64,000 nucleotides of DNA from contig CAZVMN010000007.1 of assembly GCA_964629015.1 (NCBI GenBank), positions 86,590 through 150,589 on the forward strand, written 5' to 3'. Below are positions 37,987 to 54,744 of this stretch, one piece after another; position 1 is the first letter of the stretch, and each line of letters starts with the position of its first letter. The notes beneath the pieces were generated by a model. That model was not told where the DNA came from. It worked only from the letters and a program-made list of their open reading frames with translations, and did not search any database. A program made the position numbers and the translations under genes. The stretch comes from an uncultured Oceanococcus sp. (GTDB lineage Bacteria; Pseudomonadota; Gammaproteobacteria; Nevskiales; Oceanococcaceae).

Positions 37987-40032
37987 CTAGTGTTGCAGTT
38001 CAATGGTCAGCGCTGAAGCCGCATTGCAAAGCGGCGTGTCCGATTCAAAATCCCCGTTGCTGTCATTTTCAAACAGATCAAAGGCGGACACCGCGCTACA
38101 CAGGCCATTGCCGCTGACCCGATAGCGAATGCTCTGGGCGTTCACGATTTGCGCATCGACAGCCACATCAAGCAGTTGCATGGTGATGTCGCGGTCATCA
38201 CCATCGGAGTGAGTCACCTGTATGGTGTGCGCCGTTTTGCAGGTCTGCGGATCGACTTGAAGAACAATCGCACCGCGGGAGCTATCACCACCGCTTTGAT
38301 TGCTGAACGCGAAGCCGAACGCCCGATTGTTTTGCTCGCTGCCGAGATCCTGCCGCGGACAGGGCACATTGCCGAACCCCGGGTAGCTGTGATCGTCGTT
38401 CACAGCACGGACCTGAGCAAATCCATCCTCCCCAGCGGCGTCGGGATAGAACACACCGTCGGCGTTCACATTGAGCGTGAAACGCGCACGGCTCACGCTG
38501 GAAAAATCGAAATCAGCGGGTTCGGGCTCATTGTCCGGCTCGCCTTCAAACACCACGCTGCGCCGCTGGCTGACCGATTGCGCGGTTGCCGTGTTGCTCG
38601 CCGACACCGTCACAACATCCACGGTGTCGGCTTGGGTGGCGGCTGGCACCTGCATGGAAATGCTGCGTCGATTGTTCGAACTGGTGAGCGAATTGGCGGC
38701 CACGGTGCTTCCACCACGCTCAGCTGAGAGCGCGATATCCGCGCCCTGCACACACGACAGGGTGGCACTCGCGGTATACGGTTGATCAAGTTGCGGCGTT
38801 GCCGGCGAGGTCACAAAACGATCCACACTGGGGCTCAGATCGTTGATCACCAACGTCGGAAAGGGTCCCGCCGCGTTGGCGCTACGCTGCTCCGAAGTGA
38901 CGATCCCGCGCGGTTGCGAACCGGGCGCAGCGATGGATGCCCCGGCCTGGAAATCCGCAATGGCCTGCAAGGACACCTGGTCCAGGCCGACGGCGGAATC
39001 GACAGCATTCAATGCCCCTTCCACGTCACACAGGCGATCCAGCATGCTCGGCGTATCCGGCGATGCGCTGAAACTCTGACCCAGGGTGTTACAGGCGAAC
39101 GTACCGCCTGCCAGTGTGGCCAAACATAATGCGCCGGCAGCGCCACCCGTGATCGGTGCGGCCGGCGTGGCCGACGCCAGCACCGCAACCTGCGCGCAGA
39201 ACCCGGCTTGAAACGTCGGGTCGCCGACCAATTGGCTGCCCGCCGGCGAAGCCGCGGGATTGAACACCAGACAGGCTTGATTGAGCAGACTGGAAAAGCC
39301 CGTGCACACCGACTCCAGCTGATCCGGCACATCGATAGGCTGACGCACCGGGACGCGGGCCACGTATCGCCCGGTCTGGCCGGTGGACCAGGCTGGATAG
39401 CGCCCGCTGGACGCGACGCTCAGGCTGGCGAAATTGACCACCACGCCACCGCTGGGATTCACCGCGGTGTCACATTTGGCCACATCCACGGTGACATTGC
39501 CGACCGGTTCAGCGGCTTGCAGCTGAGCCAAGGCATCATCCAGATCCACAATCACCGGGCTGTCCAAACTCACCACACCGCCGATCGAGCGCGCCTCATC
39601 ACCATCGTTGCTGATGATGTCGATGCCTATGCTACTGACGCTACGCGTCGCATTGGCGCCATCCGCTTTCAAGCGTTTCTGTACCGCTTGTCCATCGCTG
39701 TCCAGGTAGGTGAGGCGGATGACATTGCCACGTTCATCGGCGCCACGAATGGGCAAGCCAAACTCATCCACTCCGATCTCGTAGGTTTTGCCCTGCGTGT
39801 CCTGGTAGGACAAATGGGTGATCGCTGTCGGCACACCGTCGCCATCACGCTGGCCAAAAAACGTCACCTGTTCGCCGTTGTCCGCATCCAGTTTGTACAC
39901 CGCGCTGTCGTCCGGATTGACGTAAACGGTGCGCTCGGAAATCGAAGCACCCCCGCCACCTCCACCGCCGCCGCACGCCATCAAAGCCAGTGCAAATCCA
40001 CTCAAAATCGCGCCGCGCCAGTCCGTTGTCAT
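37987..40032 (-). CDS. orphan Cys-rich lipoprotein of unknown function
   Basis: Lipobox LMAC followed by G8. 681 aa, rich in Ser/Ala/Asp/Val and with many Cys. No domain recognised. Same strand as the 7TMR-DISM kinase gene and 80 nt upstream of it. Confidence 0.5.
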   Translation of the reverse strand: MTTDWRGAILSGFALALMACGGGGGGGGASISERTVYVNPDDSAVYKLDADNGEQVTFFGQRDGDGVPTAITHLSYQDTQGKTYEIGVDEFGLPIRGADERGNVIRLTYLDSDGQAVQKRLKADGANATRSVSSIGIDIISNDGDEARSIGGVVSLDSPVIVDLDDALAQLQAAEPVGNVTVDVAKCDTAVNPSGGVVVNFASLSVASSGRYPAWSTGQTGRYVARVPVRQPIDVPDQLESVCTGFSSLLNQACLVFNPAASPAGSQLVGDPTFQAGFCAQVAVLASATPAAPITGGAAGALCLATLAGGTFACNTLGQSFSASPDTPSMLDRLCDVEGALNAVDSAVGLDQVSLQAIADFQAGASIAAPGSQPRGIVTSEQRSANAAGPFPTLVINDLSPSVDRFVTSPATPQLDQPYTASATLSCVQGADIALSAERGGSTVAANSLTSSNNRRSISMQVPAATQADTVDVVTVSASNTATAQSVSQRRSVVFEGEPDNEPEPADFDFSSVSRARFTLNVNADGVFYPDAAGEDGFAQVRAVNDDHSYPGFGNVPCPRQDLGSEQNNRAFGFAFSNQSGGDSSRGAIVLQVDPQTCKTAHTIQVTHSDGDDRDITMQLLDVAVDAQIVNAQSIRYRVSGNGLCSAVSAFDLFENDSNGDFESDTPLCNAASALTIELQH

Positions 40033-40182: not shown

Positions 40183-42462
40183 GTGGAGGCTTGTAATCGC
40201 ATGACAGAGCTCCAGCCGATGAAACAGCGCAAACACACCTTCTGCCGCATCTGCGAAGCCAGCTGCGGACTGGAAGCCGAGCTTGAGGATGGTCGTATCG
40301 TTGAGTTGCGACCCAATCGCGCGCACATGGGCACCGATGGTTTTGCCTGCATGAAAGGTTTGAACCAGCACAAAATGTATGACTCGCCCGATCGGCTGCG
40401 CTATCCGCTGAAACGTGTCGGCCAGCATTTTGAGCGCATCAGCTGGGCGCAGGCCTATGCCGAGATTGGTGCCAAGGTCAAAGCCCTGCGCCAACGCAGC
40501 GCACGCTCCTTGTCGATGTACGTGGGCACAGCCGCCGGTTTCAGCATCTTGCATCCGATCTTTGCCGAGGGCTTCATGCAGGGGCTGGGTTCACCCAATA
40601 TTTTTTCCTCATCGACCCAGGATTGCGCCAACCGCTTTGCCGCGGCCAATGAAATTTACGGCTTTCCCTTTTGTCAGCCGTTTGTCGATCTCGACCATGT
40701 GAAATTCATGCTCATCGTCGGGACCAATCCGGTGGTCTCCAAGTGGACCTTTTTGCAGGTTGCCCATCCGGTCAAACGACTCAAGGAAGTCCTCAGCCGC
40801 GGGGCGCAAATCGTCGTGGTCGACCCGCGGTATACCGAAACTGCCAAGGTCGCCAGCGACCATCAGTTCATTCGTCCCAACACGGATGTGTTCTTCTTCC
40901 TGTCCTTCTTGCATGAACTGTTCGCCCAAGGCGGTGTGGATCGCACACATGCGGCCAAGTACATGAATGGCGTGGACGAATTGCAGGCGCTATCCGCAGC
41001 TTGGCCGGCCAGCCGCACAGCGGATTTGACCGGCATAGACGAACCCCGCCTGAAACAGCTGGTTGGCGACTACATCGTGGCTGGTGCATCGGCTATCGTG
41101 ACCGGGACCGGTCTGGGCATGGGCAAACACGGCACCCTGGCCCAGTGGTTGGCCGAAGCGATCAACGCGCTGAGCGGAAACCTCGATCGGCAGGGCGGCA
41201 CGCTTGTTGGCAAAGGCCTGTTCGATTTCGCCGCCTATGCGAAAAAAGAGAAACTGTTCGAGCGCCACGAGCGCTCCCGTATCGGTGATTTCTTCGAGCT
41301 CAACGGCGGCTTCCCGGGCGGCATTCTGGCCGACGAGATTTTGCAGCCTGGCGAGGATCGCATCCGCGCGCTGTTCGTCACTGGCGGCAATCCGCTGCTG
41401 ACCATGCCCAATGCGGCGCGGCTGCGCGAAGCCTTGAGCGAATTGGAGCTGTTGGTTGTGACCGACATCTACCTCAATGAAACCGCTAGCCTCGCGCACT
41501 ATGTGCTGCCGGCGACCTCACCGCTGGAACGCCCCGACCTGCCTTTCGTATTCCCCTTGTTTCTGGGCATGCAATCCAAGCCTTATGTCGCCGCCACGGA
41601 CGCCATTGTCGAACCCGATGGCGAGCAAAAGGATGAAGCGACCATCTACACCGAGCTGGCGCGCGCCTGTGGGGTGAGCCTTTTCAAGGCCAAACCCCTG
41701 CAGTGGATGCTGCAAGCCTTGCTGGCCGCCAACACACCATGGCGGCGCGGCAAGCCGCGCGCCCTGCCGGTGCGCCTGATCCTGGACCTGATCCTGCGAC
41801 TGAGCAAAACCGGGCGCTTTCGCGATCTGGCAGCCAAGCCCAACGGCATGGATTGGAAGGGCGGTGCCACGCCGGGCACTTATCTGGGTCAGCGTGTGGT
41901 GACCGATGACGGCAAACTGCACCTGGCCCCCGAACGTCTGATGCAACAAACCGCAAGACTGGACGACATTTTCCATGCGGAAATGGCCAGCTATCAGGGC
42001 GGTGAGATGCGTCTGATCAGCAAACGCATGCATAGCACCCACAACTCCTGGACGCAAAACATTGAGGAGTTGACCAACGGGCGTATGGGCCAGACCAATT
42101 ATCTGTACATGCACCCCGAGGATGCCGCAGCCAAAGGCTTGGGTGAGTACGATGCGGCCGACATCCAGTCAAAAACGGCAACCATCCGGCTGCCCGTCAA
42201 ACTGCTCGACACCTTGCTACCGGGGACTGTGGCGGTGCCGCATGGCTGGGGTCATCAGCATGCCCGTGGACTCGGTGTTGCGAGCAAGCTGGCCGGGGCC
42301 AACGTCAATCTGCTGGCCGCTGATGGAATCGACGCGGTGGAACCGGTATCCGGCATGGCCCATCTCAGCGGCATTCCGGTCAGTATCGAAAAGGCCGCCG
42401 GGCCGATTGATCCGGCCAGTTGGTCGGGCATTGCGCCACAATCCGCAACGGCCTCTGCGTAA
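40183..42462 (+). CDS. cytoplasmic molybdopterin (bis-MGD) oxidoreductase family protein
   Basis: N-terminal Fe-S cluster motif CRICEASCG...CMKG, a candidate Mo-ligand region TQDCANRF, and a C-terminal molydopterin-dinucleotide-binding region. No Tat signal. The start may be one of the internal Met codons (about 40201). Confidence 0.82.
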   Translation: MEACNRMTELQPMKQRKHTFCRICEASCGLEAELEDGRIVELRPNRAHMGTDGFACMKGLNQHKMYDSPDRLRYPLKRVGQHFERISWAQAYAEIGAKVKALRQRSARSLSMYVGTAAGFSILHPIFAEGFMQGLGSPNIFSSSTQDCANRFAAANEIYGFPFCQPFVDLDHVKFMLIVGTNPVVSKWTFLQVAHPVKRLKEVLSRGAQIVVVDPRYTETAKVASDHQFIRPNTDVFFFLSFLHELFAQGGVDRTHAAKYMNGVDELQALSAAWPASRTADLTGIDEPRLKQLVGDYIVAGASAIVTGTGLGMGKHGTLAQWLAEAINALSGNLDRQGGTLVGKGLFDFAAYAKKEKLFERHERSRIGDFFELNGGFPGGILADEILQPGEDRIRALFVTGGNPLLTMPNAARLREALSELELLVVTDIYLNETASLAHYVLPATSPLERPDLPFVFPLFLGMQSKPYVAATDAIVEPDGEQKDEATIYTELARACGVSLFKAKPLQWMLQALLAANTPWRRGKPRALPVRLILDLILRLSKTGRFRDLAAKPNGMDWKGGATPGTYLGQRVVTDDGKLHLAPERLMQQTARLDDIFHAEMASYQGGEMRLISKRMHSTHNSWTQNIEELTNGRMGQTNYLYMHPEDAAAKGLGEYDAADIQSKTATIRLPVKLLDTLLPGTVAVPHGWGHQHARGLGVASKLAGANVNLLAADGIDAVEPVSGMAHLSGIPVSIEKAAGPIDPASWSGIAPQSATASA

Positions 42463-43752
42463 TCAGGCGCCGCTGGTAAACACCGGCCAAGTGTCGACGA
42501 TCGCACCATCGTCGTACACCGCGATGTCGCCGAACTGCAGGAATACGAACTCGGACTGACGCGGACGCAGGAACACCATATCGCCGACGCCCAATTCAAC
42601 CTGCTCGGAACCGTTGAGCAGATCCTGATTGGTCGAATGTCCCCAGATGGCATTGCGCTGCAAACCGGGCGGCGAAACGCTGTCGGCCAGCCAGTAGCCG
42701 CCGTAGATGTAAAAGGCTTGTGCGGTGTTGGGGTCCCACGCACGCATCACCCCGGTCATGGATTCCAGACCGGGCAAATCTGTCCGGTTCAGTGCCTTGA
42801 GCACCGGGGTGGCAATAAAGCTGGCCGGTTGATTGTCAGCCAGGGCCGGCACATCAAAGTCGGACGGCATAACCAGACCCGACCCCATGGCCAACTCATT
42901 GCAGGGCGCGCTGTTGTCGTACATGGAAAACGTCGAGCTGCCGCCCGCATTGAGCGTGTAAGCCGACGGATCATAGGCGCTGCCCATGCGCTCACGCAGC
43001 ACATCCAATGCAGTGCTGTAGCGCTGCATGGCCATATCCAGCGCTTTGCGCGGCCCACCCAGAAACCCTGGCATTTTGGACGCATGGGCTTCGTAGCCCA
43101 TGAAGCCGGCAAAGCTCAGCGAAGGTGACTGCTCCACCACCCGCAGCACCTCAGCCACGTCCGAAGCTTCGCGCAAACCACCGCGGTGCAAGCCCACATC
43201 CAACTCCAAGTTGACGCGCATCGGACCAAGCCCCTCAGCCTGACGCGCCGTGGCAAGCTCGGCATATTCACGCGCACGCTGGGGCGTGTCGATCAGCCAT
43301 TCGATCTGCGAGGCCGGATCAAAACCCGGGTTCCGGTGCCTGTCGAAGAATCGCTGCGCGGCGCCCACCGGCATGGGTTTGCCGAGCAGGACGCGCGCAT
43401 CGCTCATCTGCGCACCGACCAGATTGAGAAACGGCTGATGGAACACCATCAGGCGATCCGTGCCGGTGGCGTCGCGCACCGCCTGGATTAACGGCAGGCT
43501 GGGCAAAGATTTGGCGACGATGCGGTAGGCCATCTGCGACGGCAGATGGGCCTTGAGTTGGCCAATGTTGTGCTGCAGGCGTGCCCTGTCGATCACCAAT
43601 GTGGGTCGAAACAACCCCGCCTGAGCCAGTGCGTTCTGCACCGCGCGAAAGTATTCATCGTGCCGCCCGCTTTGTGCGGTGGGACGTAGGGCGACGGCTG
43701 CAGCGGGCGCGGCGATCGCAGCCCCAAGCAATAAACGGCGACGGCGATTCAT
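42463..43752 (-). CDS. Tat-exported PLP enzyme of the alanine-racemase-fold/DSD1 (D-serine dehydratase / D-threonine aldolase-like) family
   Basis: Twin-arginine leader MNRRRRLLLGAAIAAPAAAVA. Ala_racemase_N-like barrel with a candidate PLP Lys in YRIVAKSLPS, followed by a C-terminal beta domain. Confidence 0.68.
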   Translation of the reverse strand: MNRRRRLLLGAAIAAPAAAVALRPTAQSGRHDEYFRAVQNALAQAGLFRPTLVIDRARLQHNIGQLKAHLPSQMAYRIVAKSLPSLPLIQAVRDATGTDRLMVFHQPFLNLVGAQMSDARVLLGKPMPVGAAQRFFDRHRNPGFDPASQIEWLIDTPQRAREYAELATARQAEGLGPMRVNLELDVGLHRGGLREASDVAEVLRVVEQSPSLSFAGFMGYEAHASKMPGFLGGPRKALDMAMQRYSTALDVLRERMGSAYDPSAYTLNAGGSSTFSMYDNSAPCNELAMGSGLVMPSDFDVPALADNQPASFIATPVLKALNRTDLPGLESMTGVMRAWDPNTAQAFYIYGGYWLADSVSPPGLQRNAIWGHSTNQDLLNGSEQVELGVGDMVFLRPRQSEFVFLQFGDIAVYDDGAIVDTWPVFTSGA

Positions 43753-43761
43753 GACAACTCC

Positions 43762-45177
43762 TCAGGCGACGCCGAACAGCTGGCGCAAATATGGATTGAG
43801 CATGCGCCCCTGCGGGTCCAAGGCTTCACGCACGGTCAAAAACTCCTGCCAGCGCGGATAACGCGCCGCCAGTTGCTGCGGTGTCAGCGTGTGCATCTTG
43901 CCCCAGTGCGGACGCCCTTCGTATGGCTGGTAGATCGGTTCCAGGCTGGCAAAGTACGGCAGCGGATCTTCCTTGTGATAACGATGCACCGCGATGGAAC
44001 CGGACACCGCGTGGCCCTGAAAGGGCGACAACATGGCGTCATCACCGCGCACCACCCGGATTTCGATGGGGAAAAACTCTTCGTGATGTTGCGATTCAAT
44101 GCGTTCGCGCACCTGTTTGAACGCCGGCATCAGGGCCTCGGATGGCAAGTGATATTCCATCTCGTTGAAACGCACTTCGCGGCTGGATGGGAAGATGCGA
44201 TACCACAGATCGACCGCCTCTTCCGGCTCGAAGTCGCCGGTGGCCATGTCGAGCAGGCGACGCCGCATCCCCGGCCACCATGACAACCAGTCGCGCAGCT
44301 GTTTGATCTGCATCACCGCATCGTTGTCCTGCTCGGGTCCGCGCGGCTGCACATCCTCGTCAGTAGGGTTGATGGCAATCGCCATCGCTTGGCTACAGAA
44401 CGGGATGTAATACATCTCGAAACTGTGATTTTCCCGAACCAATTGATCAAAGTTCTCGATGAGCTCGTCAATCGGTGCCAGCCAGCTGCGCCGTTTGAGC
44501 TTGTGCGTCGGCACGTTCTGCAAGGTCATCTCGGTGATCACGCCGAGACTGCCGAGGGACACTTTGGCCGCGCTAAACACCTCAGGGTTGGTCTGTGCGC
44601 TGCAATCCAGCACCTCGCCATTGGGCGTGACCAAGCGCAGGCTTTTTACATAGCTATGCAGCGCACCCAGCTGAGCGCCGGTGCCATGAGTTGCGGTGCC
44701 GATGGCGCCGGCCAGGGTTTGCGAGTCGATGTCCGGCATATTGGCCAGCGCCTGGCCCACCTCATCCAGCATCGGCCCCAGATCACCCAGGCGCGTGCCA
44801 GCGCCGAGCGTCGCGGTCATGGCGGTGCTGTCATGCGACTTCAAGCCGGCGAAATTGCGCAAGGACAGCAATGTGCCATCGGTGGGCACCAACGCGGTGA
44901 ACGAATGCCCAGCCCCAACCGGGCGGATCGGTGCCGGTGTCTGGCGCAGAATGTCGGCCAGTTCACCTTCATCTTTGGGCACCAGACGCTGCACCGGCAC
45001 ACCGAATTGGTAGCCCGACCAGTTCTGCCAGGGGATCAAACGTTTGCCATCGGGCCCGGTGGTGGGTGCTGGCGCCTGCGGCATGTTGGACGCACCGTGG
45101 TCATCGCAACCGGCCAAGCCGACGCCGCTGGCTGCCGCCACCGACGACAGCAACATCTCACGTCGATTCATCGCCAT
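43762..45177 (-). CDS. Tat-exported lipoprotein flavoenzyme, VAO/PCMH fold with aldonolactone oxidase (ALO/GULO) C-terminal domain
   Basis: Tat motif NRREMLL plus lipobox LAGC. FAD_binding_4 region with PVGAGHSF (position of the flavinylated His in GULO-type enzymes). GRPHWGKMH is an ALO-family signature. Confidence 0.8.
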   Translation of the reverse strand: MAMNRREMLLSSVAAASGVGLAGCDDHGASNMPQAPAPTTGPDGKRLIPWQNWSGYQFGVPVQRLVPKDEGELADILRQTPAPIRPVGAGHSFTALVPTDGTLLSLRNFAGLKSHDSTAMTATLGAGTRLGDLGPMLDEVGQALANMPDIDSQTLAGAIGTATHGTGAQLGALHSYVKSLRLVTPNGEVLDCSAQTNPEVFSAAKVSLGSLGVITEMTLQNVPTHKLKRRSWLAPIDELIENFDQLVRENHSFEMYYIPFCSQAMAIAINPTDEDVQPRGPEQDNDAVMQIKQLRDWLSWWPGMRRRLLDMATGDFEPEEAVDLWYRIFPSSREVRFNEMEYHLPSEALMPAFKQVRERIESQHHEEFFPIEIRVVRGDDAMLSPFQGHAVSGSIAVHRYHKEDPLPYFASLEPIYQPYEGRPHWGKMHTLTPQQLAARYPRWQEFLTVREALDPQGRMLNPYLRQLFGVA

Positions 45178-45178
45178 A

Positions 45179-45541
45179 TCACTGCCCCGCCATGTAGTTG
45201 ATCAGAGCAATGAAATCGTCTTCGCTGCAATCCATGCAAGCACCCAGCGGCGGCATGCCGTTGTAGCCATTGATGGTGTGTTCAACGAGCACGTCCATGC
45301 CCTGCTTCATGCGCGGTGCCCAGGCGGCCTGATCACCAGCCATCGGCGCGCCGGTGCGCGATGAGGCATGACAGGCCCGGCAGGTTTGATCGTAAACACG
45401 GGCCAGCGCCGGATCCGCCGGCGGTGGTGGCGGCGTGACGGAAGCCTGCGTTGTCGATGCCGGTGTCGCTGAATCCCCGCAAGCGCTCAACATCAGCGCC
45501 AAAGCGCCAAACACCGGCGCCATCCCCAAGCCACTTTTCAT
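45179..45541 (-). CDS. lipoprotein monohaem c-type cytochrome (cytochrome c5-like)
   Basis: Lipobox MLSAC, a Pro-rich linker, the haem site CRACH and a distal Met in GYNGMPPLG. Start trimmed to MKSGLGM (the ORF track extends to 45601). 1-nt gap to the flavoprotein gene. Confidence 0.8.
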   Translation of the reverse strand: MKSGLGMAPVFGALALMLSACGDSATPASTTQASVTPPPPPADPALARVYDQTCRACHASSRTGAPMAGDQAAWAPRMKQGMDVLVEHTINGYNGMPPLGACMDCSEDDFIALINYMAGQ

Positions 45542-45604
45542 GCTGTGTGTCCTCACTGTGTCGCCGTCATGGACTGGCAACAGTTCGATACTCTTTCGCA
45601 AATT

Positions 45605-45621
45605 ACATACTCAGGGTATGT
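45605..45621. promoter_or_regulatory. inverted repeat acatac-N5-gtatgt overlapping the TetR start codon (candidate operator)
   Basis: Lies in the roughly 75-nt divergent region between the cytochrome c gene and the TetR gene. Short, so it may be a chance match. Confidence 0.3.
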
Positions 45622-46298
45622 TTATGTCAACACAACACCGGATTCGCCGCTCGTCCATGGCACCACAAGCCGCCCATAAAACATCCACTCGCACCGCGCG
45701 TCGGCGCCCGCAAGCGCGCGGCATCGCGACGCGCGAGCGCCTGTTGAGTGCGGCCGAGGCGCTATTCATCGATGAAGGCTATGACGATGTCAGCATCGAC
45801 CGCATCGTTGCCGCTGCCGCCGTCACCAAGGGCGCGTTCTATCACCACTTTGGCGACAAGCTGGCGATCTTCCGGGAAGTTTTCGAGGCCATCGATCAAG
45901 AAATGGCCGATTTGGTGCGCGAGCGCGCGATGACAGCCGAAACACCTCTCGGCATTGTTCAACGCGGCGTGCGCACCTGTTTTGAGCTGTGCACCCAACC
46001 GCGCTACGGGCGTTTTGTCTACATCACCGCACCGCCGGTGATTGGTTGGACCGGTTGGTATGAAACGGACAACGCCATCTCGCGCGAGATCGTGATGGCG
46101 GGCTTGCAAAACGCGGTTGAGCTGGGGGAGCTCGCGCCGTTGTCGGTGTCATCACTCACCACCCTGTTGATGGGGCTGGTTCTGCAAGGCGCGATTGCGG
46201 TCGTGACTTCAGACACGCCCGATCAGACGGCGGCGGAGTTGGCAGCCGAGGCGGACCATCTTTTGCTTGCACTTGCAGCACAGGCCAAATCGGATTGA
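45618..46298 (+). CDS. TetR/AcrR family transcriptional regulator
   Basis: HTH region RERLLSAAEALFIDEGYDDVSIDRIVAAAAVTKGAFYHHFGDK. Start trimmed to MFMSTQH; the upstream part of the 287-aa ORF overlaps the cytochrome gene region. Confidence 0.85.
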   Translation: MFMSTQHRIRRSSMAPQAAHKTSTRTARRRPQARGIATRERLLSAAEALFIDEGYDDVSIDRIVAAAAVTKGAFYHHFGDKLAIFREVFEAIDQEMADLVRERAMTAETPLGIVQRGVRTCFELCTQPRYGRFVYITAPPVIGWTGWYETDNAISREIVMAGLQNAVELGELAPLSVSSLTTLLMGLVLQGAIAVVTSDTPDQTAAELAAEADHLLLALAAQAKSD

Positions 46299-46332
46299 TG
46301 GCTGTGCACACCTCAAGGAACAGGGGATTGAG

Positions 46333-48858
46333 ATGCGTTTGATTTTTCTATTGCTGCCACTGGCGCTCTGGGCAACGGCGTCCAGCGCCCAAGATGATGA
46401 TCTGGACTTTCTGTTTTCCGATACCGAGATCACGCCCACACCTCGCCCCTCGCCATCGCCTTCCGAGGCAAGCTCAATAACGACCGACGATGAGCCGGTC
46501 ACAACCATCCCGGTCAGCGAATTGCGCTCGCCGGAGCCGACGCGCGCCCCCGCACCCCCGAGCCGGGTGCTGGAGGAAATCGTGGTCACCGCGCAAAAAC
46601 GCGAACAGTCACTGCAGGACGTGCCCATTTCGGTCACCGCGGTGGACGGCTCGTTCATTGAAATGACCAACGCCGCTGACCTGGCTGATGTCTCGCTGTA
46701 TGTGCCCAATGTGCGTGTGGACGCCGATGACCTGGGTTCACCGCAACTGTTCATTCGCGGCTTTGGCACCAATGCCTTCAACCCCAGCTTCGAAAGTTCG
46801 GTCGGCTTTGTGCAAGACGAAATCTACTTCGGCCGCCCCGGCTACTTCACCGAGTCCATGTTCGATGTGGATCGGGTCGAAGTGCTGCGCGGGCCGCAGG
46901 GCACCCTGTTCGGCAAAAACACCATCGCCGGCGTGTTCAACGTCAGCACGCGCAATCCCAGCGAGCTGTTTGAAGCGGATACGCGTTACACCTATGGCAG
47001 CAACAATGCGCACCGCCTGGAGTTTGGCGTCGGCGGCATGTTTGCGGATTGGGGCGGCGTGCGCATTTCCGGTCTCTATCGCGACGAAGACGGCGAGTTG
47101 TACAACCAATTCCTGGATCGTGACGAAGAGGAACTGACCCAGCAAGCCGGGCGCATCAAGCTGATGCTCCTACCCAGCGACACCCTGAGCGTCAACCTCA
47201 CCGCGCAGATTTCCGACACCGAAGCCGCATTCTGGCCCTATCAGCTGATGGAGTTGGATTCCGGCAGCTTCAACTTCCTGCGCAGCTACGACCCGGACGT
47301 CGAAGACGATCCCTACGATTTCCGCAACTCGGCCGACACCCCCGGCTTCATCGAAAAAGGCTCGGAAACCGTCTCGGCAATCACCCAATGGGACGTGGGC
47401 GATCTGTGGGGTTTGCAGGACAGCGCCTTCACATTGGTGCTGGCCGGCTCGAAATTCCATATCGATCAGCTCAACGAATTGGACGTCTCCCCAGCCGACA
47501 TTGGCCGACTGGAGAATTACGAAGACCATGAGCAACTGTCCGGCGAACTGCGTTTCTCCGCCCGCGCCGATAGCCTGTTTGGCTTTGGTGGCGATGTCGA
47601 TCTGGTTGCCGGTGCATTCTGGTACGACTCGCAGTACACCTTGCTCGCGCGTATCCACGCCGGCTCCGACATCGGCTCCTTTGTCCTCACCGAAGACGCC
47701 TTGCAACTGGTCAGCGGCTCGGGCGGCTTCGGCCTGATTGGCGGCCTGCCCGGCATTCCACTGCTCGGTAACATTCTCGGCCCAATCATCGGCGAGGATT
47801 TCTACCAGCTGGATTATGACCAGGCGGTGACCTCGCTGGCGTTCTTCGGGCAGATGACCTGGTATCTGACCGAGCGCATTGCGCTCACGCCGGGGGTACG
47901 TATCAACACCGAGGATAAAACTATTGACTCCGCGGGTTCACGAAGCTGCACCCTGGATCAACTGGGTCTGCCGGTCTGCGTGATGGCCACGCTCCTGGAA
48001 GCCGAGAATTACGAGCGCAACGGTCTCAAACGTAGCGAGTCGGATGTTTCTCCCAAATTCGTCATCCAGTACTTTGGCGACAACGACATCAACTGGTTTG
48101 CCTCCTACGCGCGCGGTTACAAAAGCGGCGGGTTCAACTCCCTGTCCTACACCGGTGAAGATCTGGAGTTCGAGCCAGAGAAAGCCGAAACCTTTGAGTT
48201 GGGCGTCAAAGCCACCTTGTTTGATCGCACCCTGCGCCTCAACGCCACGCTGTACGACACGCGTTTCGACAATCTTCAGGTTTTGGCTTTCAACAGCGTG
48301 TTTTTCGATGTCGGCAACGCGGCGTCCGCCCGCTCACGCGGCCTGGAAGCCGATTTCATGTGGTTCACCCCGTTCGAGCCGCTGCAAATCATGGGCTCGA
48401 TCGGCTTGCTCGAAGCCAAATACGACAGCTACGACGGCGCCCCCGCCCCGATTCGCGACAGCAACGGTGATCTGCAGATCGACGCCACCCAGGACCTCAG
48501 TGGCCAGCGCATTGCTTTTGCGCCTCGTACCACGGCAACTCTCACGCCGATGCTGACCTTCCCGCTGTTTGGCCTGACCGGTCGTTTCGCGGTGGATGTT
48601 CTGCATCAAGGTGATCAATTCACCGACACCGACCTTGACCCCAACAGTCACGTGGATGCGTACACGCTGTACGCCGCGCGCGTGTCGATTTCCAACTACA
48701 CAGAGAGCTGGTCAGTCACCTTGGGGGGCAGCAACCTGACCGACAAACGTGTTCTCAATCAGGTCACCGACGCAACCTTCTTCCCCGGCAGCTACTTTGC
48801 CCAGCAGGCCAGCGGACGTCAGTTGTTTGCGACCTTCAATTTGCGCTTCGGCGATTGA
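46333..48858 (+). CDS. TonB-dependent receptor
   Basis: Signal peptide MRLIFLLLPLALWATASSA, a Pro/Ser/Thr-rich linker, plug motifs (EEIVVTAQKREQSLQDVPISVTAV, VEVLRGPQGTLFGKNT) and a long beta-barrel. Start trimmed from the ORF-track 46267. Confidence 0.9.
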   Translation: MRLIFLLLPLALWATASSAQDDDLDFLFSDTEITPTPRPSPSPSEASSITTDDEPVTTIPVSELRSPEPTRAPAPPSRVLEEIVVTAQKREQSLQDVPISVTAVDGSFIEMTNAADLADVSLYVPNVRVDADDLGSPQLFIRGFGTNAFNPSFESSVGFVQDEIYFGRPGYFTESMFDVDRVEVLRGPQGTLFGKNTIAGVFNVSTRNPSELFEADTRYTYGSNNAHRLEFGVGGMFADWGGVRISGLYRDEDGELYNQFLDRDEEELTQQAGRIKLMLLPSDTLSVNLTAQISDTEAAFWPYQLMELDSGSFNFLRSYDPDVEDDPYDFRNSADTPGFIEKGSETVSAITQWDVGDLWGLQDSAFTLVLAGSKFHIDQLNELDVSPADIGRLENYEDHEQLSGELRFSARADSLFGFGGDVDLVAGAFWYDSQYTLLARIHAGSDIGSFVLTEDALQLVSGSGGFGLIGGLPGIPLLGNILGPIIGEDFYQLDYDQAVTSLAFFGQMTWYLTERIALTPGVRINTEDKTIDSAGSRSCTLDQLGLPVCVMATLLEAENYERNGLKRSESDVSPKFVIQYFGDNDINWFASYARGYKSGGFNSLSYTGEDLEFEPEKAETFELGVKATLFDRTLRLNATLYDTRFDNLQVLAFNSVFFDVGNAASARSRGLEADFMWFTPFEPLQIMGSIGLLEAKYDSYDGAPAPIRDSNGDLQIDATQDLSGQRIAFAPRTTATLTPMLTFPLFGLTGRFAVDVLHQGDQFTDTDLDPNSHVDAYTLYAARVSISNYTESWSVTLGGSNLTDKRVLNQVTDATFFPGSYFAQQASGRQLFATFNLRFGD

Positions 48859-48957: not shown

Positions 48958-51405
48958 ATGCGCGGCATACTCAGCCTCGTTCTGCTTGTCGTCTTGAGCG
49001 CGTGTCAAAGTGGCGGGCGCGATTCAGTCAATTCGCTGCCATCATCCAATGACGCGCTGTCGGCTGAACTGCGTCGCAGCGACTACGGCATTGTTCACGT
49101 CAAAGCCGATGACTTCGCCAGCCTCGGTTATGGCTACGCTTATGCCTTCGCCGAAGACAACCTGTGCCTGATTGCCGACAGCTACGTCACAGTCAATGGT
49201 GAACGCAGCAAGTATTTTGGCCCGGACAACAGCTGGACCTTCACCGGCAACAGCACCACCAACAACAATCTGAATTCGGATTTCTTCTTCAAGCTGATCA
49301 TCGCCGAACAGCGCATCGAAAAGCTGCTCGACTTGCCGCCGCCGCAGGGCCCATTGCCGCAAGTGCGAGAGCTGGTGCGTGGCTATGTGGCCGGCTACAA
49401 CCGCTACCTACAGGATACCGGCGTTGACAATCTGCCGGACCCGACCTGCCGCGGTGAACCCTGGGTCCGGGAAATTCGCGAGATTGACGTCTACCGGCGT
49501 TTCTATCAGCTCGCCATGCTGGCGTCGTCGGGCGTCGCCATCAATGGCATCGGCAGCGCCCAACCCCCGACCGCCGGACTGATCCCCAGTGTGCTGCCCT
49601 CGGCTGAGGACATCGCCGCACAACTCGGCGCGCGCTGGGAAGGCATCCAGATTGGCAGCAATGCCATCGCCCTTGGCAGCGAGGCGACCGACACCGGCGG
49701 TGGCATGATTTTGGGCAACCCACATTTCCCCTGGGACGGCACAGAGCGCTTTCATCAGGCCCATCTCACGATCCCGGGCAAGCTGGATGTCACCGGTGTA
49801 AGCCTGTTCGGCGTGCCATTGATCTTGATCGGCTACAACAAAGACCTAGCCTGGAGCCACACGGTGTCCAGCGCCTGGCGTTTCACCCCATACCAGTTGA
49901 CCCTGGTCCCCGGCGCACCAACCACCTATCTGGTTGATGGCGTTCCGGAAGCCATGACGCCGTGGGATCTGGAGGTGGAAAGCCTGCAAAGCGACGGCAG
50001 CGTCACGAACGTCTCACGCACGCTGTACACCACCCGTTGGGGACCGGTTTTCAACGAAATCCTTGGCTTGCCGCTGTTCCCATGGCTGCCGGTTCAGGCC
50101 TACGCGCTGGCCGATGCCAACGCCGCGAACTTCCGCTACGTGAATCATTTCCTGGAAACCAACCAGGCGAGTTCCAGCCGCGAGTTGCTGGAGATCCTCA
50201 AGCGCAACCAGGGCATACCGTGGGTGAATACCTTGGCCAGCGACCGCCACGGCGAAGCGCTCTACGCGGATATTTCCGTCACGCCGAACGTCCCCGATGA
50301 CATGGCCCTGAGCTGCGCGGGTGTGCTCGGACTGGTAACCCACCCCTTGCTCGGCTTACCCGTGCTCGACGGTTCGCGCAGCAGCTGTGCGTGGCGCAAT
50401 GATGAGGATGCGATCCAAGCCGGCACGCTGGGGCCATCGAACATGCCGTATCTGCTGCGCAACGATTACGTCACCAATTCCAACGACAGCCATTGGCTGT
50501 CCAGCCCACAGCAGCCACTGGAAGGTTTCGCCCGCATCATTGGCGACGAACAACGTGCGCGACGCATGCGCACCCGCTCCGGCTTGGTCATGCTGGAGGA
50601 GCATCTTTATGGCGACAACGGCCACACGTTCAGTCGTCAGCAGATGCAGGATTTGTTGTACAACGACCGTCAGCACGCCGCCCATCTGTGGATTGATGAC
50701 CTGATCCCGTTCTGCCGCCTGCTCCCCATTATGGTCGGGCTAGGTGGACCGGTGACCACCGGCGAGGCCTGCGATGTGCTGGAGGCCTGGGACCGCAGCG
50801 ATCGCCTCGACAGTGCGGGCGCCGTGCTGTTCCGACGCTTCGCCGAGAACCTCTACATCGCCAACATTCCCTCGGGCACCTCGGCATCGCAGCTCGAATT
50901 CCTGGATGTCTGGACCCAGCCCTTTGATGTCAACGACCCGGTCCACACGCCGAGTGGTCTGAATGTGCTCAACCCGCACGTGGAGCTTGCTCTGGCCAGC
51001 GCCATCAGTGACCTCAACGGTGCGGGCATGCCACTCGATGCGACCCTGCGACAAGCCCAGACAGAGCGGCGCGGTGAGGAGAAAATCCCCATTCATGGCG
51101 GCCCTGGCGCCATGGGCGTCTTCAATGCGATCACCAACCCGTGGGTGGACGGTGAGGGCTATATCGACGTCGTGCATGGCTCCAGTTTTATTCAGGTGGT
51201 CAGCTTTGACGGCGACGACTGTCCCGATGCGCGCACCATCCTGACGTACTCGCAGAGCTCCGACCCAAGCTCCCCGCACTTCGCGGATCAGACACGCCTT
51301 TACTCAGAAAGTGGTTGGGTCGAGGCCCAGTTCTGTGAGAGCGAGATCCGTGGCAGGGTTACGCACAGCAAGACCTTGAGTGAAGGCACAGCGAGCCTGA
51401 ACTAA
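48958..51405 (+). CDS. lipoprotein Ntn-hydrolase of the penicillin/acyl-homoserine-lactone acylase family (S45; PvdQ/QuiP-like)
   Basis: Lipobox VLSAC. An IGSNAIALG motif provides the autoproteolytic Gly-Ser site with an N-terminal nucleophile Ser. NPHFPW motif. 815 aa. Confidence 0.85.
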   Translation: MRGILSLVLLVVLSACQSGGRDSVNSLPSSNDALSAELRRSDYGIVHVKADDFASLGYGYAYAFAEDNLCLIADSYVTVNGERSKYFGPDNSWTFTGNSTTNNNLNSDFFFKLIIAEQRIEKLLDLPPPQGPLPQVRELVRGYVAGYNRYLQDTGVDNLPDPTCRGEPWVREIREIDVYRRFYQLAMLASSGVAINGIGSAQPPTAGLIPSVLPSAEDIAAQLGARWEGIQIGSNAIALGSEATDTGGGMILGNPHFPWDGTERFHQAHLTIPGKLDVTGVSLFGVPLILIGYNKDLAWSHTVSSAWRFTPYQLTLVPGAPTTYLVDGVPEAMTPWDLEVESLQSDGSVTNVSRTLYTTRWGPVFNEILGLPLFPWLPVQAYALADANAANFRYVNHFLETNQASSSRELLEILKRNQGIPWVNTLASDRHGEALYADISVTPNVPDDMALSCAGVLGLVTHPLLGLPVLDGSRSSCAWRNDEDAIQAGTLGPSNMPYLLRNDYVTNSNDSHWLSSPQQPLEGFARIIGDEQRARRMRTRSGLVMLEEHLYGDNGHTFSRQQMQDLLYNDRQHAAHLWIDDLIPFCRLLPIMVGLGGPVTTGEACDVLEAWDRSDRLDSAGAVLFRRFAENLYIANIPSGTSASQLEFLDVWTQPFDVNDPVHTPSGLNVLNPHVELALASAISDLNGAGMPLDATLRQAQTERRGEEKIPIHGGPGAMGVFNAITNPWVDGEGYIDVVHGSSFIQVVSFDGDDCPDARTILTYSQSSDPSSPHFADQTRLYSESGWVEAQFCESEIRGRVTHSKTLSEGTASLN

Positions 51406-51479: not shown

Positions 51480-52934
51480 TTAGCCCTGCCAGCGCAAATC
51501 CAGCTGCCGCGCCGCGCGCACGTCATCCAGGCGCCGCACCGGCTGGGTATAGGGCGCACCCTTGACCTTGTCGATGTCGGCCTTGGCCTCGTCCCAGATC
51601 GCGACCATGGCATCGACGAAAGCATCCAGTGTGGCCTGATCTTCCGACTCAGTCGGCTCGATCAGCAGGCATTCGGGTACCAGCAGCGGAAAGTAGATGG
51701 TTGGGGCGTGATAGCCGTAATCGAGCAGACGCTTGGCCATATCGGTGGCGGTGAACTCGAGTTCCTGCTTCTGCTTTTTGAGCGTCACGATGAACTCGTG
51801 GGTCGCTCGGCGTCCGTCAAAGGCCAGATCGAAACCTTTGTCTTTCAGGCGCGCCATCAGGTAATTGGCATTCAGGGTGGCGAACTCGGCCACCCGGGTC
51901 ATGCCATCCGGCCCCAGCATCAACGCATAGACATAGGCCCGCAGCAGTACCCCGGCGTTGCCCATGAAGGCAGACAGTCGCCCGATGCTTTGTGGCAGAT
52001 CGTTTTCATCCAGCCAGCGGTACTGATCGCCATCTTTGCCCACCACCGGAATCGGCATGAATGGGCGCAGGCGCTCGGACACACCGACCGCACCAGAGCC
52101 CGGCCCGCCGCCGCCATGCGGGGTGGAGAAGGTTTTGTGCAGGTTCATGTGGATGACATCAAAACCCATATCGCCCGGACGCACCTTGCCGAGAATCGCG
52201 TTGAGATTGGCGCCGTCGTAGTACAGCAGGCCGCCCGCCTCGTGAACCTTCTTGGCGATGATTTCGATCTTGCGTTCGAACACGCCCAGAGTCGACGGAT
52301 TGGTCAGCATGATGCCAGCGGTCTTTGGACCCAATGCCGCTTCCAGAGCTTCGAGATCCACGTCGCCGTTCTTGTCGGTGGGGATCTCGCGCACCGTGCA
52401 GCCACACTGGATCGCGGTGGCCGGATTGGTGCCATGGGCGGCATCCGGCACCAGAATCTCGGTGCGCTCGGTATCACCGCGCGACAGGTGGTAGGCGCGG
52501 ATCATGGCGACGCCAGCGAACTCCCCCTGAGCGCCGGCCATCGGGGTCAGCGACACGCCTTTCATGCCGGTGACTGATTTGAGAATCTCTTGCAAATCGT
52601 ACATACAGGCCAGATAGCCCTGACTGTGATCCGGCGTGGCGAGCGGATGGCGGGCCAGAAACTCCGGCAACATGGCCAGGGTGTTGCAGGCCCGCGGGTT
52701 GTATTTCATCGTGCAGCTACCCAGTGGGTAGAAATGCGTGTCGATGGAGAAGTTCTTCTGCGACAGGCGGGTGTAATGACGCACCACCTGCATCTCCGAG
52801 ACTTCCGGCAGACCGGGAGTGTCCTGACGCAGGAATTCTGCCGGAATGGCGGTTGGCGCAGCCGCCTCCACGGGCGCCTGAGCAGCGGCACGGCGGCCCG
52901 GCGAGGACAGTTCAAAAATCAGCGCTTCGCTCAT
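51480..52934 (-). CDS. gcvPB: glycine dehydrogenase (aminomethyl-transferring) subunit 2
   Basis: PLP-binding region [16 protein letters not shown]. Start trimmed to [10 protein letters not shown] at 52934, 2 nt after the gcvPA stop (the ORF track extends to 53012). Confidence 0.95.
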
Positions 52935-52936
52935 GA

Positions 52937-54298: not shown

Positions 54299-54351
54299 AT
54301 CTGCGTCTCGCTAAAACCGGCCCCGAATCCAGACGAACTGGGGCGGTGAAA

Positions 54352-54744
54352 TTACTGTTCGGACTTGAGGAAGTCGGCGTAGCCGTCGGCGCTCATCAGG
54401 CCATCCAGCTCACCGGCATCGGCGGGCTGCAATTTGAAAATCCAGCCTTCGCCGTAAGGGTCATCGTTGAGCGTTTCCGGCGCATCGGCCAGGACGTCAT
54501 TGCCGCCGATCACGTCACCAGCCACCGGTGCGTAGACATCCGAGGCAGCCTTGACCGACTCAACCACAGCGGCGGCATCACCCGTGCCAAAGCTTTGGCC
54601 CGCTTCCGGGGTTTCCACAAACACCAGATCGCCCAGGGCCTCCTGCGCATGGTCGGTGATGCCGATGGTCAGACTGCCGTCGGCCTCGACGCGAATCCAT
54701 TCATGGGATTTGGTGTACTTCAGTTCTGCGGGAATCTGGCTCAT
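54352..54744 (-). CDS. gcvH: glycine cleavage system H protein
   Basis: YTKSHEWI and the lipoyl-Lys motif [12 protein letters not shown]. 130 aa. Confidence 0.95.

Follow-up and report, generated by a model that had tools for sequence, protein, structure and literature searches.

A cytochrome, flavoprotein and pyridoxal-phosphate enzyme gene trio of a marine Oceanococcus species, a Nevskiales counterpart of the sphBCD system of Pseudomonas aeruginosa

The window, as the whole stretch of DNA analysed here is called, comprises 64,000 nucleotides (nt) of an uncultured Oceanococcus species (contig CAZVMN010000007.1), and its minus strand carries three tightly packed genes, which encode a c-type cytochrome, a flavoprotein and a pyridoxal 5'-phosphate (PLP)-dependent enzyme. 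These genes are homologous to sphB, sphC and sphD of Pseudomonas aeruginosa, they are arranged in the same order and their products bear the same kinds of export signals, that is, the trio is the Nevskiales counterpart and a new member of the known sphBCD system, the chemistry of which is still unsolved. The trio is read here, with a probability of about 0.6, as a periplasmic module by which a long-chain 2-amino-1,3-diol, for instance a sphingoid base, is oxidised and probably also cleaved. The three genes, taken from the list of open reading frames (ORFs), are as follows:

42463-43752, minus strand: PLP-protein gene (SphD homologue), 429 amino acids (aa)
43762-45177, minus strand: flavoprotein gene (SphC homologue), 471 aa
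45179-45541, minus strand: cytochrome gene (SphB homologue), 120 aa, starting at the internal ATG at 45541 of ORF 45179-45601

The intergenic gaps are 1 nt between the cytochrome and flavoprotein genes (45178) and 9 nt between the flavoprotein and PLP genes (43753-43761), and the G+C content is even across the region. A previous interpretation made from the letters alone, called the sequence-only reading below, had described this packing, and the ORF list bears it out. It had also pointed to a stop-to-stop junction without a terminator at 42462/42463, and this too was found: the convergent ORF of a molybdenum (Mo) oxidoreductase ends at 42462, its TAA (42460-42462) abuts the TCA (42463-42465) that is the TGA of the PLP gene on the minus strand, and a terminator/promoter scan found no terminator-like hairpin there.

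In BLASTP comparisons, which extend over essentially the whole mature protein, the products match those of Pseudomonas as follows:

Cytochrome and SphB: 55% identity, 6e-40
Flavoprotein and SphC: 48% identity, 6e-140
PLP enzyme and SphD: 44% identity, 6e-117

The Pseudomonas genes stand in L081, a P. aeruginosa record, evidently a piece of the chromosome, which was the best match of the flavoprotein in the plasmid collection. Its gene order is spoT, rpoZ, gmk, rph, pyrE, "cytochrome c5 family protein", "D-arabinono-1,4-lactone oxidase", "DSD1 family PLP-dependent enzyme", "transporter", SphR and argB, where the "transporter" is of the SphA type and SphR is annotated as "AraC family transcriptional regulator SphR". 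The 48% identity of the window flavoprotein to SphC is on a par with that of the trio members from Halieaceae (43-49%). Moreover, in a neighbour-joining tree the SphC of P. aeruginosa (PaSphC) falls inside the Gram-negative trio clade, which is set apart from a clade of Burkholderia, Brevibacillus, Mycobacterium and Arthrobacter proteins and from a Sinorhizobium outgroup (no PLP partner).

Sphingosine is an antimicrobial lipid, and sphBCD is known genetically to remove it. LaBauve and Wargo (2014, PMC3900636) found that PA5328-PA5326, the sphBCD genes, belong to the SphR regulon, which responds to sphingosine and also includes sphA and the ceramidase gene cerN. DiGianivittorio et al. (2025, PMC11893366) reported that without sphB or sphC normal growth with sphingosine, sphinganine and phytosphingosine is lost and sphingosine does not disappear, sphD being dispensable in that assay. 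The chemistry proposed in Pseudomonas is an oxidation at C1 followed by aldol cleavage, which the authors favour, to glycine and a fatty aldehyde (PMC3900636). The Pseudomonas work left open a direct action of SphB and SphC on sphingosine. The sequence-only reading knew of no described pathway with such a combination of components; this is contradicted by P. aeruginosa sphBCD, in which the same three components were described in both of these papers.

The trio is a conserved unit across several orders of marine bacteria. A search of a protein collection with the PLP protein gave more than 4,000 relatives, and those bearing organism names belong to Nevskiales genera, e.g., Sinimarinibacterium, Fontimonas, Solimonas and Hydrocarboniphaga. 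An alignment of 19 relatives (A1) was used for scanning one genome per species, which gave 80 loci, and the order of the trio was read in each locus by tblastn with the window proteins, only loci with enough upstream sequence being counted. The order cytochrome-flavoprotein-PLP enzyme is kept in 68 of 68 loci outside a Myxococcota-type group, so the neighbourhood conservation on which the sequence-only reading had staked its grouping of the three genes is present. By group, the trio was found as follows:

Nevskiales-like loci: 26 of 26
Spongiibacteraceae loci: 10 of 10
Halieaceae/Cellvibrionales loci: 30 of 30
Parvibaculales loci: 2 of 2
Myxococcota-type loci: 0 of 6

The Myxococcota-type group consists of six metagenome-assembled genomes (MAGs) labelled delta-proteobacteria, Polyangiales, Myxococcales or "uncultured bacterium", plus one Gammaproteobacteria MAG. 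Clustering of all locus ORFs gave, beyond the trio, no broadly conserved neighbour except a TonB-dependent receptor, and the nearest relatives of the window locus are in two Oceanococcus MAGs (81-90% identity). Some MAG labels among the loci are unlikely ones (L005 "Ferrovibrio", L022 "Verrucomicrobiia", L033 "Paracoccaceae"), and the tblastn coordinates and identities of L005 are almost equal to those of the Sinimarinibacterium flocculans locus L004; the odd labels may be due to binning contamination rather than lateral transfer.

Export was judged on two grounds, the sequence motifs of the N-termini, which were read across all loci, and the Pseudomonas homologue for which it has been validated by experiment; the motifs support conserved envelope-targeting signals in all three products. 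The motifs listed in the sequence-only reading, namely LSAC and CRACH in the cytochrome, GAGHSF, HWGK, NRREMLL and LAGC in the flavoprotein and a twin-arginine leader in the PLP protein, are all present. A Cys directly follows the hydrophobic region in about 65 of 67 cytochromes, P. aeruginosa SphB included. A signal for twin-arginine translocation (Tat) was recognised by a twin-arginine motif and an uncharged hydrophobic stretch after it, inside the first 35 residues. In the flavoprotein, NRREMLL is followed by 17 uncharged residues, and the arginine pair (RR) is kept in 59 of 60 homologues, the exception looking truncated. A lipobox after this Tat signal is found only in the Nevskiales-like clade, in the form L-[AST]-G-C-D-D-(H/Y)-G-A with Asp at +2 and a Pro/Ala-rich linker, whereas the flavoproteins of Spongiibacteraceae, Halieaceae and Pseudomonas have an ordinary AxA site instead; the lipobox noticed earlier is therefore real as a motif but is a trait of one clade, not of the whole family.

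The PLP protein begins with NRRRR at residues 2-6 (NRRRRLLL) and 16 uncharged residues, its RR is kept in 52 of 53 homologues (the exception is truncated), and an AxA-like site and a conserved (K/R)-P motif follow. Of 118 full-length close family members, 114 have RR with a run of 12 or more uncharged residues behind it. In the wider PLP family (E ≤ 1e-30, clustered at 50% identity, 234 representatives of which 108 are full-length), an RR signal is present in only 34 of the 108 full-length representatives, and many of the family start at the mature N-terminus or with a hydrophobic anchor lacking RR, so that Tat export appears to be a trait of this PLP subclade and not of the fold. In Pseudomonas, PA5327 is a validated Tat substrate with its signal peptide given (Gimenez et al. 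2018, PMC6085387), and the long SphC ORF in L081 starts exactly with this published signal, MPSHLSRRQLLQRAGALGAFAAMVGNPALA; PA5326 is not mentioned in the main text of that Tat-substrate screen (PMC6085387). A GTG lies 69 nt before the RefSeq start of P. aeruginosa SphD (L081:8301-9578), and translation from this GTG gives a protein that begins with VNRRKFMFAGLGAGALLAGAAAW, a twin-arginine signal. The databases hold both forms of SphD, one of 425 aa with the RR signal and one of 402 aa under RefSeq names, the start of which cuts the signal off, and because the 425-aa form from the upstream GTG carries the signal, P. aeruginosa SphD is probably also a Tat substrate. Since the PLP partner is itself a conserved predicted Tat substrate, all the proposed chemistry would be periplasmic.

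The cytochrome matches Pfam Cytochrome_CBB3 (5.9e-14), and its best PDB matches are cytochromes cA/c5 (7e-19 to 3e-15), among which the c5 structures 1cc5 and 8smr match at 1e-15 to 1e-16. It has the lipobox LSAC (Cys21), the haem site C54-R-A-C57-H58, Met96 and the c5-type pair Cys102/Cys105, in other words the single CxxCH, the distal Met and the C-terminal Cys pair by which c5 cytochromes are recognised. Judged from these residues, it is a lipoprotein mono-haem cytochrome c5, and it is proposed to be the electron acceptor of the flavoprotein. p-Cresol methylhydroxylase is a periplasmic dehydrogenase of the VAO fold with covalent flavin adenine dinucleotide (FAD) and a c-type cytochrome, which acts on an aromatic substrate. 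By analogy, the trio may follow the same design principle, although p-cresol methylhydroxylase belongs to another VAO subfamily and the window cytochrome is a separate c5-type lipoprotein. The pairing of a VAO-fold flavoprotein with a c-type cytochrome of its own suggests a dehydrogenase that works in the periplasm, and the general idea of the sequence-only reading, a periplasmic flavocytochrome acting together with a periplasmic PLP enzyme, is reasonable.

The flavoprotein matches Pfam FAD_binding_4 (1.4e-25) and ALO (1.5e-54) and is a member of NCBIfam TIGR01679 bact_FAD_ox (524.8 bits, cut-off 292.25; residues 50-469 against model positions 1-419), and its motifs are R5-R6, the lipobox LAGC (Cys24), GAGH91SF and HWGK427. 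It had been supposed from the sequence alone that it is an aldonolactone-oxidase-type enzyme forming an undescribed periplasmic flavocytochrome, the substrate shared with the PLP enzyme being an aldonolactone, an amino-lactone (homoserine lactone, for example) or a free amino acid. In favour of this, the flavoprotein has the Pfam ALO domain and the HWGK motif, a PvdQ-like acylase encoded near the trio could in principle release homoserine lactone from acyl-homoserine lactones, and Rv1771, the L-gulono-1,4-lactone dehydrogenase of Mycobacterium tuberculosis, which is in the same TIGR01679 subfamily, passes electrons from L-gulono-1,4-lactone to cytochrome c in vitro. However, the ALO domain is common to a wider group and not to lactone oxidoreductases alone, and the flavoprotein falls below the NCBIfam cut-offs for sugar 1,4-lactone oxidase (TIGR01678, 197.9 against 396.8 bits) and galactonolactone dehydrogenase (TIGR01676 GLDH, 93.9 against 458.25 bits). 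Its closest solved relatives are the alditol/glycerol oxidases 8OT8 (6e-43) and 2VFR (3e-35), the L-galactonolactone dehydrogenases coming next (1e-33) with only the FAD domain well covered. The lactone activity of Rv1771 came from recombinant protein free of flavin, so the assigned activity is doubtful, and Rv1771 lacks a cytochrome gene of its own and carries Gly at the gatekeeper position discussed below. As a described system with the same three components exists besides, the lactone framing is considered very improbable.

8OT8 is the alditol oxidase AldOAb, the active-site residues of which are listed in PMC10771423, and these were transferred to the flavoprotein through a pairwise alignment with the following result:

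His45 of 8OT8 (covalent FAD): His91 in the flavoprotein
His118 (active site): His164
Glu327 and Arg329 (active site): Glu372 and Arg374
His350 and Lys382 (hold C1-O1 before flavin N5): His398 and Lys427
Ser103 (hydrogen bond to flavin N5): replaced by Asp149
Gln295 (active site): replaced by Glu339

The catalytic set of the alditol oxidases is kept in 12 of 12 compared family members, save for one Leu at the Glu372 position (Sinorhizobium). By this alignment, the flavoprotein keeps the flavinylation His and the residues by which alditol oxidases take hydride from a terminal C1-OH. The group oxidised by these enzymes is a terminal CH2OH, and the double oxidation of polyols to acids is known. 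The replaced residues, Asp149 and Glu339, are invariant in a 60-sequence alignment and in all 12 compared members, and two such carboxylates beside a polyol-type site could suit an ammonium group adjoining the oxidised carbon, that is, a C2 ammonium. While the alditol oxidases AldO of Streptomyces coelicolor (2VFR) and AldOAb (8OT8) share the flavinylated His and the C1-OH residue set with the window flavoprotein, they have Ser103/Gln295 where it has Asp149/Glu339, they are cytoplasmic enzymes which use O2 and act on small polyols, whereas the window protein has a Tat signal, a lipobox and a dedicated cytochrome c, and the identity is about 30%.

At the gatekeeper position, which corresponds to Ala113 of GalDH, the window flavoprotein has Pro148 (about 44734-44736) and PaSphC has Ala. 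The published rule is that Ala goes with dehydrogenases and Gly or Pro with oxidases, and exceptions to it exist. In a set of only 12 sequences, Pro or Ala was observed where a cytochrome c gene adjoins and Gly in six homologues without one (Arthrobacter, Eleftheria, Mycobacterium riyadhense, Burkholderia, Brevibacillus and Sinorhizobium). The conserved dedicated cytochrome is a better argument for a dehydrogenase than the gatekeeper residue.

The PLP protein has Ala_racemase_N (PF01168, 5e-16) as its sole Pfam match. Among the Pfam domains that the sequence-only reading had named for the trio, FAD_binding_4, ALO and Ala_racemase_N were thus matched, but the D-ser_dehydrat C-terminal domain (PF14031) found no match in the PLP protein. 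Only its central part aligns with 3-hydroxy-D-aspartate aldolase (BhcC; 1.6e-7, or 1.2e-10 with a profile) and with D-threonine aldolases (about 1e-3), and it is below all curated NCBIfam equivalog cut-offs (BhcC, 37 bits against 690; TIGR00492 alanine racemase, 15 against 168). An AlphaFold2 model built from A1 has a predicted local distance difference test score (pLDDT) of 80.8 and a predicted template modelling score (pTM) of 0.80, the C-terminal third being at pLDDT 60-70. In a Foldseek search of the PDB with this model, the top matches are 6qkb, 4v15, 4pb5 and 3anu, with template modelling (TM) scores of 0.63-0.74 and root-mean-square deviations (rmsd) of 3.6-4.1 Å, and the top classes are β-hydroxyaspartate aldolase, D-threonine aldolase, D-threo-3-hydroxyaspartate dehydratase and D-serine dehydratase; these leading structural matches all act on D-configured β-hydroxy-α-amino acids. 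As modelled, the protein is of fold type III and is closest to the D-threonine and 3-hydroxy-D-aspartate aldolases and dehydratases, not to the racemases, and the earlier view that the PLP partner belongs with enzymes acting on amino-acid-like substrates is supported by this likeness.

The Ala_racemase_N match and Lys81, which is invariant in the family and aligns with the PLP lysine of alanine racemases, could also be taken to mean that the enzyme is a periplasmic amino-acid racemase of the broad-spectrum type, loosely linked to the flavocytochrome; such periplasmic racemases are in the PDB, 7agz being among the Foldseek matches. Membership of the alanine racemases was rejected on the TIGR00492 score given above and on structural superposition, in which alanine racemases fit the model worse (rmsd 6-7 Å, TM 0.55-0.6) than the aldolase/dehydratase group. 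In addition, the strict adjacency to the flavoprotein gene in 68 loci argues for a shared pathway, so a loosely linked racemase is hardly credible.

A choice within the aldolase/dehydratase group is more difficult. The enzyme might be a dehydratase or deaminase which converts the oxidised D-β-hydroxy amino acid to a 2-oxo acid and ammonia by β-elimination, the pathway being otherwise the same, since D-serine dehydratase and D-threo-3-hydroxyaspartate dehydratase come close behind the aldolases in the range of TM scores above, the two activities are not distinguishable by sequence alone within the superfamily, and no curated equivalog model was matched. On the other hand, the best matches in both sequence and structure are aldolases (BhcC and D-threonine aldolase) and the Pseudomonas authors favour aldol cleavage; neither point is decisive, and β-elimination is regarded as rather unlikely. 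D-Threonine aldolase, BhcC and D-serine dehydratase share the fold and the central motif (the Arg of GLHRGG, and Tyr220) with the PLP protein, but the known DSD1-type enzymes are cytoplasmic and 15-20% identical to it, whereas the clade of the window protein is RR-bearing and predicted to be exported by Tat. The metal site and the catalytic base are not readable in the PLP enzyme because of the low pLDDT of the C-terminal third and ambiguous alignments with D-threonine aldolases.

Upstream of the cytochrome gene, the following features were found:

45602-45630, minus strand (the strand of the trio): promoter-like element TTGACA-17 nt-TGTAAT, from a comparison of upstream regions
45606-45620: palindrome CATAC-N5-GTATG, a likely TetR operator, inside the promoter-like element in the 115-bp gap between the cytochrome and TetR genes
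45657-46298, plus strand, divergent: TetR-family regulator (Pfam TetR_N 8.6e-16, TetR_C_41 1.6e-13)
46330-48858, plus strand: TonB-dependent outer-membrane receptor (Pfam Plug and TonB_dep_Rec_b-barrel)
48958-51405, plus strand: PvdQ-like Ntn-hydrolase acylase with the lipoprotein signal LVVLSAC (Pfam Penicil_amidase 1.6e-117)

The start of the TetR gene (ATG at 45657) was inferred from conservation in L001 and L002, and TetR homologues with 50-73% identity occur in eight loci (L001, L002, L004, L005, L010, L013, L016 and L023). The palindrome occurs as a single copy in the 64-kb window, and it lies just upstream of the cytochrome gene in exactly these eight TetR-bearing loci and there in no other locus. 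A consensus promoter scan and an inverted-repeat tool made no call in the gap between the cytochrome and TetR genes, the operator being seen only by the comparison across loci. From its distribution, the palindrome is likely the TetR operator over the promoter-like element of the trio, and the TetR protein is likely the repressor of both the trio and the receptor operon.

The TonB-dependent receptor probably starts at the signal peptide MRLIFLLLPLALWATASSAQ. Twenty-five loci of the Nevskiales-like bacteria and Spongiibacteraceae have an orthologue (50-75% identity), which is divergent from the cytochrome gene and separated from it by 200-2800 bp, and the receptor is absent from the trio-bearing Halieaceae loci; it is likely the importer of the substrate. 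Against NCBIfam PvdQ, for which the cut-off is 950 bits, the acylase reaches 621. A distant PvdQ-like lipoprotein acylase (23% identity) is divergent from the trio in two closely related Halioglobus MAGs, L053 (5707-7938) and L055, and in no other locus, and because an acylase accompanies the trio in two lineages only, it is counted as part of the module only tentatively. Like the ceramidase CerN of the SphR regulon, which frees a sphingoid base, it could set a substrate free from an N-acylated form; alternatively, it may be unrelated to the trio and act on acyl siderophores or acyl-homoserine lactones. Beyond the acylase, glycine cleavage genes lie on the minus strand (51480-55850), gcvT coming first and then gcvPA and gcvPB, with room for gcvH between. 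They were noted since glycine is the proposed product of SphD, and a link to the trio was dropped as the adjacency is not conserved in other loci.

The window and Pseudomonas systems have in common a lipoprotein c5 cytochrome, a Tat flavoprotein and a PLP enzyme of the DSD1/threonine-aldolase type, which in Pseudomonas too bears RR if the upstream GTG is taken as its start, and they differ in their surroundings and in some details. The window has a TetR regulator with its own palindromic operator where Pseudomonas has the AraC-type SphR, a divergent TonB-dependent receptor where Pseudomonas has the SphA (Phenol_MetA_deg) channel, and a PvdQ-like acylase nearby but no ceramidase, whereas the Pseudomonas regulon includes CerN. 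The flavoprotein of the window has a lipobox after the Tat signal and a gatekeeper Pro, in contrast to a plain AxA cleavage site and a gatekeeper Ala in Pseudomonas, and the host is a marine Nevskiales bacterium instead of a host-associated pseudomonad.

If the substrate is a sphingoid base or a similar amino-diol, the pathway might run as follows. The substrate, perhaps freed beforehand from an N-acyl form by the PvdQ-like acylase, would cross the outer membrane through the TonB-dependent receptor. The membrane-tethered flavoprotein would then turn the CH2OH at C1 into an aldehyde and, in the manner of alditol oxidases acting on polyols, possibly further into the acid, and its electrons would pass to the lipoprotein cytochrome c5 and on to the respiratory chain. 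Oxidation of C1 of a (2S,3R) sphingoid base to the acid would give a (2R,3R), D-erythro β-hydroxy-α-amino acid, like D-allo-threonine, the change of descriptor arising because a C1 carboxylate changes the priority order at C2 under the stereochemical sequence rules. The substrates of the DSD1-type family are D-β-hydroxy-α-amino acids, which is the configuration expected from this oxidation. Finally, the Tat-exported PLP enzyme would cut the C2-C3 bond to give glycine (or aminoacetaldehyde) and a fatty aldehyde. The flavoprotein is placed first and the PLP enzyme second because the D-configured product fits the D-specific fold of SphD, and this order agrees with the dispensability of sphD for detoxification in Pseudomonas.

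Sphingosine-1-phosphate lyase, a fold type I PLP enzyme of the cytoplasm or the endoplasmic reticulum, also cleaves the C2-C3 bond and gives a fatty aldehyde and a C2 amine. The end result proposed for the trio is the same, but the lyase route starts with phosphorylation and not oxidation, uses an unrelated PLP fold and is on the cytoplasmic side.

Several points weigh against a sphingoid-base module in the window. The product of sphingosine removal in Pseudomonas was never identified (PMC11893366). Caulobacter homologues (42-44% identity) gave no significant complementation and their deletion was almost without phenotype (PMC11893366), so that a function is not safely transferable at the 44-55% identity of the window proteins. 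By tblastn, SphR and SphA of P. aeruginosa have no match in the window, no SphA is present in any of the 80 loci and no ceramidase is in the window. Pro148 at the gatekeeper position is linked by the published rule to oxidases rather than dehydrogenases, the poorly modelled C-terminal third hides the metal site and catalytic base of the PLP enzyme, and P. aeruginosa SphD has Phe and Arg in place of His223 and His372, two residues that do not vary in the marine clade. Furthermore, hydrophobic lipids do not typically enter by way of a TonB-dependent receptor.

A rival idea is that the same machinery acts on another substrate, namely a hydrophilic or amphiphilic amino-polyol or β-hydroxy-amino head group imported by the receptor, such as an amino-alditol, an amino sugar derivative or an acyl peptide or siderophore bearing a hydroxy-amino acid, and that the likeness to sphBCD reflects shared chemistry and not a common substrate. 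TonB receptors usually carry siderophores, cobalamin or oligosaccharides, and the receptor of the window has only generic siderophore-receptor matches in NCBIfam, all below cut-off; PvdQ, which the neighbouring acylase resembles, is named for acyl-siderophore and acyl-homoserine-lactone chemistry; the closest solved relative of the PLP enzyme is 3-hydroxy-D-aspartate aldolase, the closest structures of the flavoprotein act on small polyols, and the Caulobacter homologues of similar identity have no clear sphingosine phenotype. However, the sole experimental data on the trio concern sphingoid bases, PaSphC groups with the window flavoprotein in the tree, genes of lipid catabolism adjoin related loci, the acylase goes with the trio in no more than two lineages, and the receptor is absent from Halieaceae loci that keep the trio. 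A different substrate is judged unlikely, and the long-chain amino-diol is preferred. A stronger form of this preferred reading, that the trio and the receptor make up a complete periplasmic catabolic route for sphingoid bases or similar amino-diols, widespread in marine Gammaproteobacteria, is judged less likely than not. In this form, the lipid-anchored, Tat-exported dehydrogenase, similar to alditol oxidases, would make a D-erythro β-hydroxy amino acid by four-electron oxidation at C1, and the Tat-exported PLP lyase, similar to D-threonine aldolase, would split it into glycine and a fatty aldehyde.

Related genes are also found outside the trio-bearing orders or in other arrangements. In the Ruegeria pomeroyi DSS-3 megaplasmid (L082), genes for TetR, cytochrome, ALO, DSD1 and DUF819 proteins stand in a row, and in Yoonia (L085) cytochrome, ALO, DUF819 and SGNH hydrolase genes do so, with an AMP-binding enzyme and a PLP gene alongside. 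The DUF819 membrane protein of these roseobacters (L082:7477-8622 in R. pomeroyi, L085:5364-6530 in Yoonia) may be an inner-membrane transporter for the pathway product. The literature search found nothing on the R. pomeroyi locus tags, on newer SphC or SphD biochemistry or on marine sphingoid-base catabolism by way of these genes. In Eleftheria an ALO gene is followed by a PLP gene, and in Arthrobacter the PLP gene comes first. Mycobacterium riyadhense has a PLP gene, an M28 peptidase gene and an ALO gene, so that a fold-type-III PLP gene is two genes away from that of its flavoprotein, which is 36% identical to the window protein and belongs to the second clade of the flavoprotein tree, apart from it. 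Burkholderia stagnalis has a divergent PLP-like gene upstream of an ALO gene (38% identity to the window flavoprotein), and about 3 kb from the ALO gene a protein 37% identical to SphR is encoded (L086:8254-9234), so an SphR-type regulator, as judged by this identity, may extend to Burkholderia.

In the Myxococcota-type loci (L040:4179-17194 and L041), an RR-bearing SphD-like gene has no flavoprotein or cytochrome gene within 10 kb, and its neighbours encode two acyl-CoA synthetases, a thiolase, short-chain dehydrogenases/reductases, an enoyl-reductase-like alcohol dehydrogenase, acyl-CoA dehydrogenases and a CAAX-protease-like membrane protein. The lipid-catabolic neighbours in these loci and in Yoonia fit a fatty product, which is circumstantial evidence.

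The other genes near the trio in the window are the following:

40183-42462, plus strand: Mo-oxidoreductase (Pfam Molybdopterin, Molydop_binding and Molybdop_Fe4S4; N-terminal Fe4S4 Cys motif)
37987-40032, minus strand: predicted lipoprotein of 681 aa (LALMAC, then a Gly run), no Pfam match
32171-34486, plus strand: protein of 771 aa of the tannase-like family DUF6351 (4.7e-206)

The Mo-oxidoreductase is below every NCBIfam equivalog cut-off, its best matches being formate dehydrogenase alpha and thiosulfate reductase PhsA at about 200 bits. It is probably cytoplasmic because it has no twin-arginine signal, and it is outside the conserved module because it is common only to L002, an Oceanococcus MAG in which the 681-aa lipoprotein (86% identity) is also encoded beside it.

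The trio module is common in marine lineages which degrade lipids and hydrocarbons, where it is wired to a TonB receptor and a TetR operator, and the comparative data add testable points to the unsolved biochemistry of sphBCD. If the preferred reading is true, a detoxification system known from host-pathogen relations would extend to the general environmental turnover of sphingolipid head groups, and enzymes from non-pathogenic bacteria would be offered for solving the mechanism of sphBCD. If the complete route also proved true, it would be an alternative to the sphingosine-1-phosphate lyase pathway that is independent of phosphorylation, and with it a PLP aldolase would for the first time be defined in the periplasm, and a sphingoid lipid would for the first time be known to enter by a TonB-dependent uptake system.

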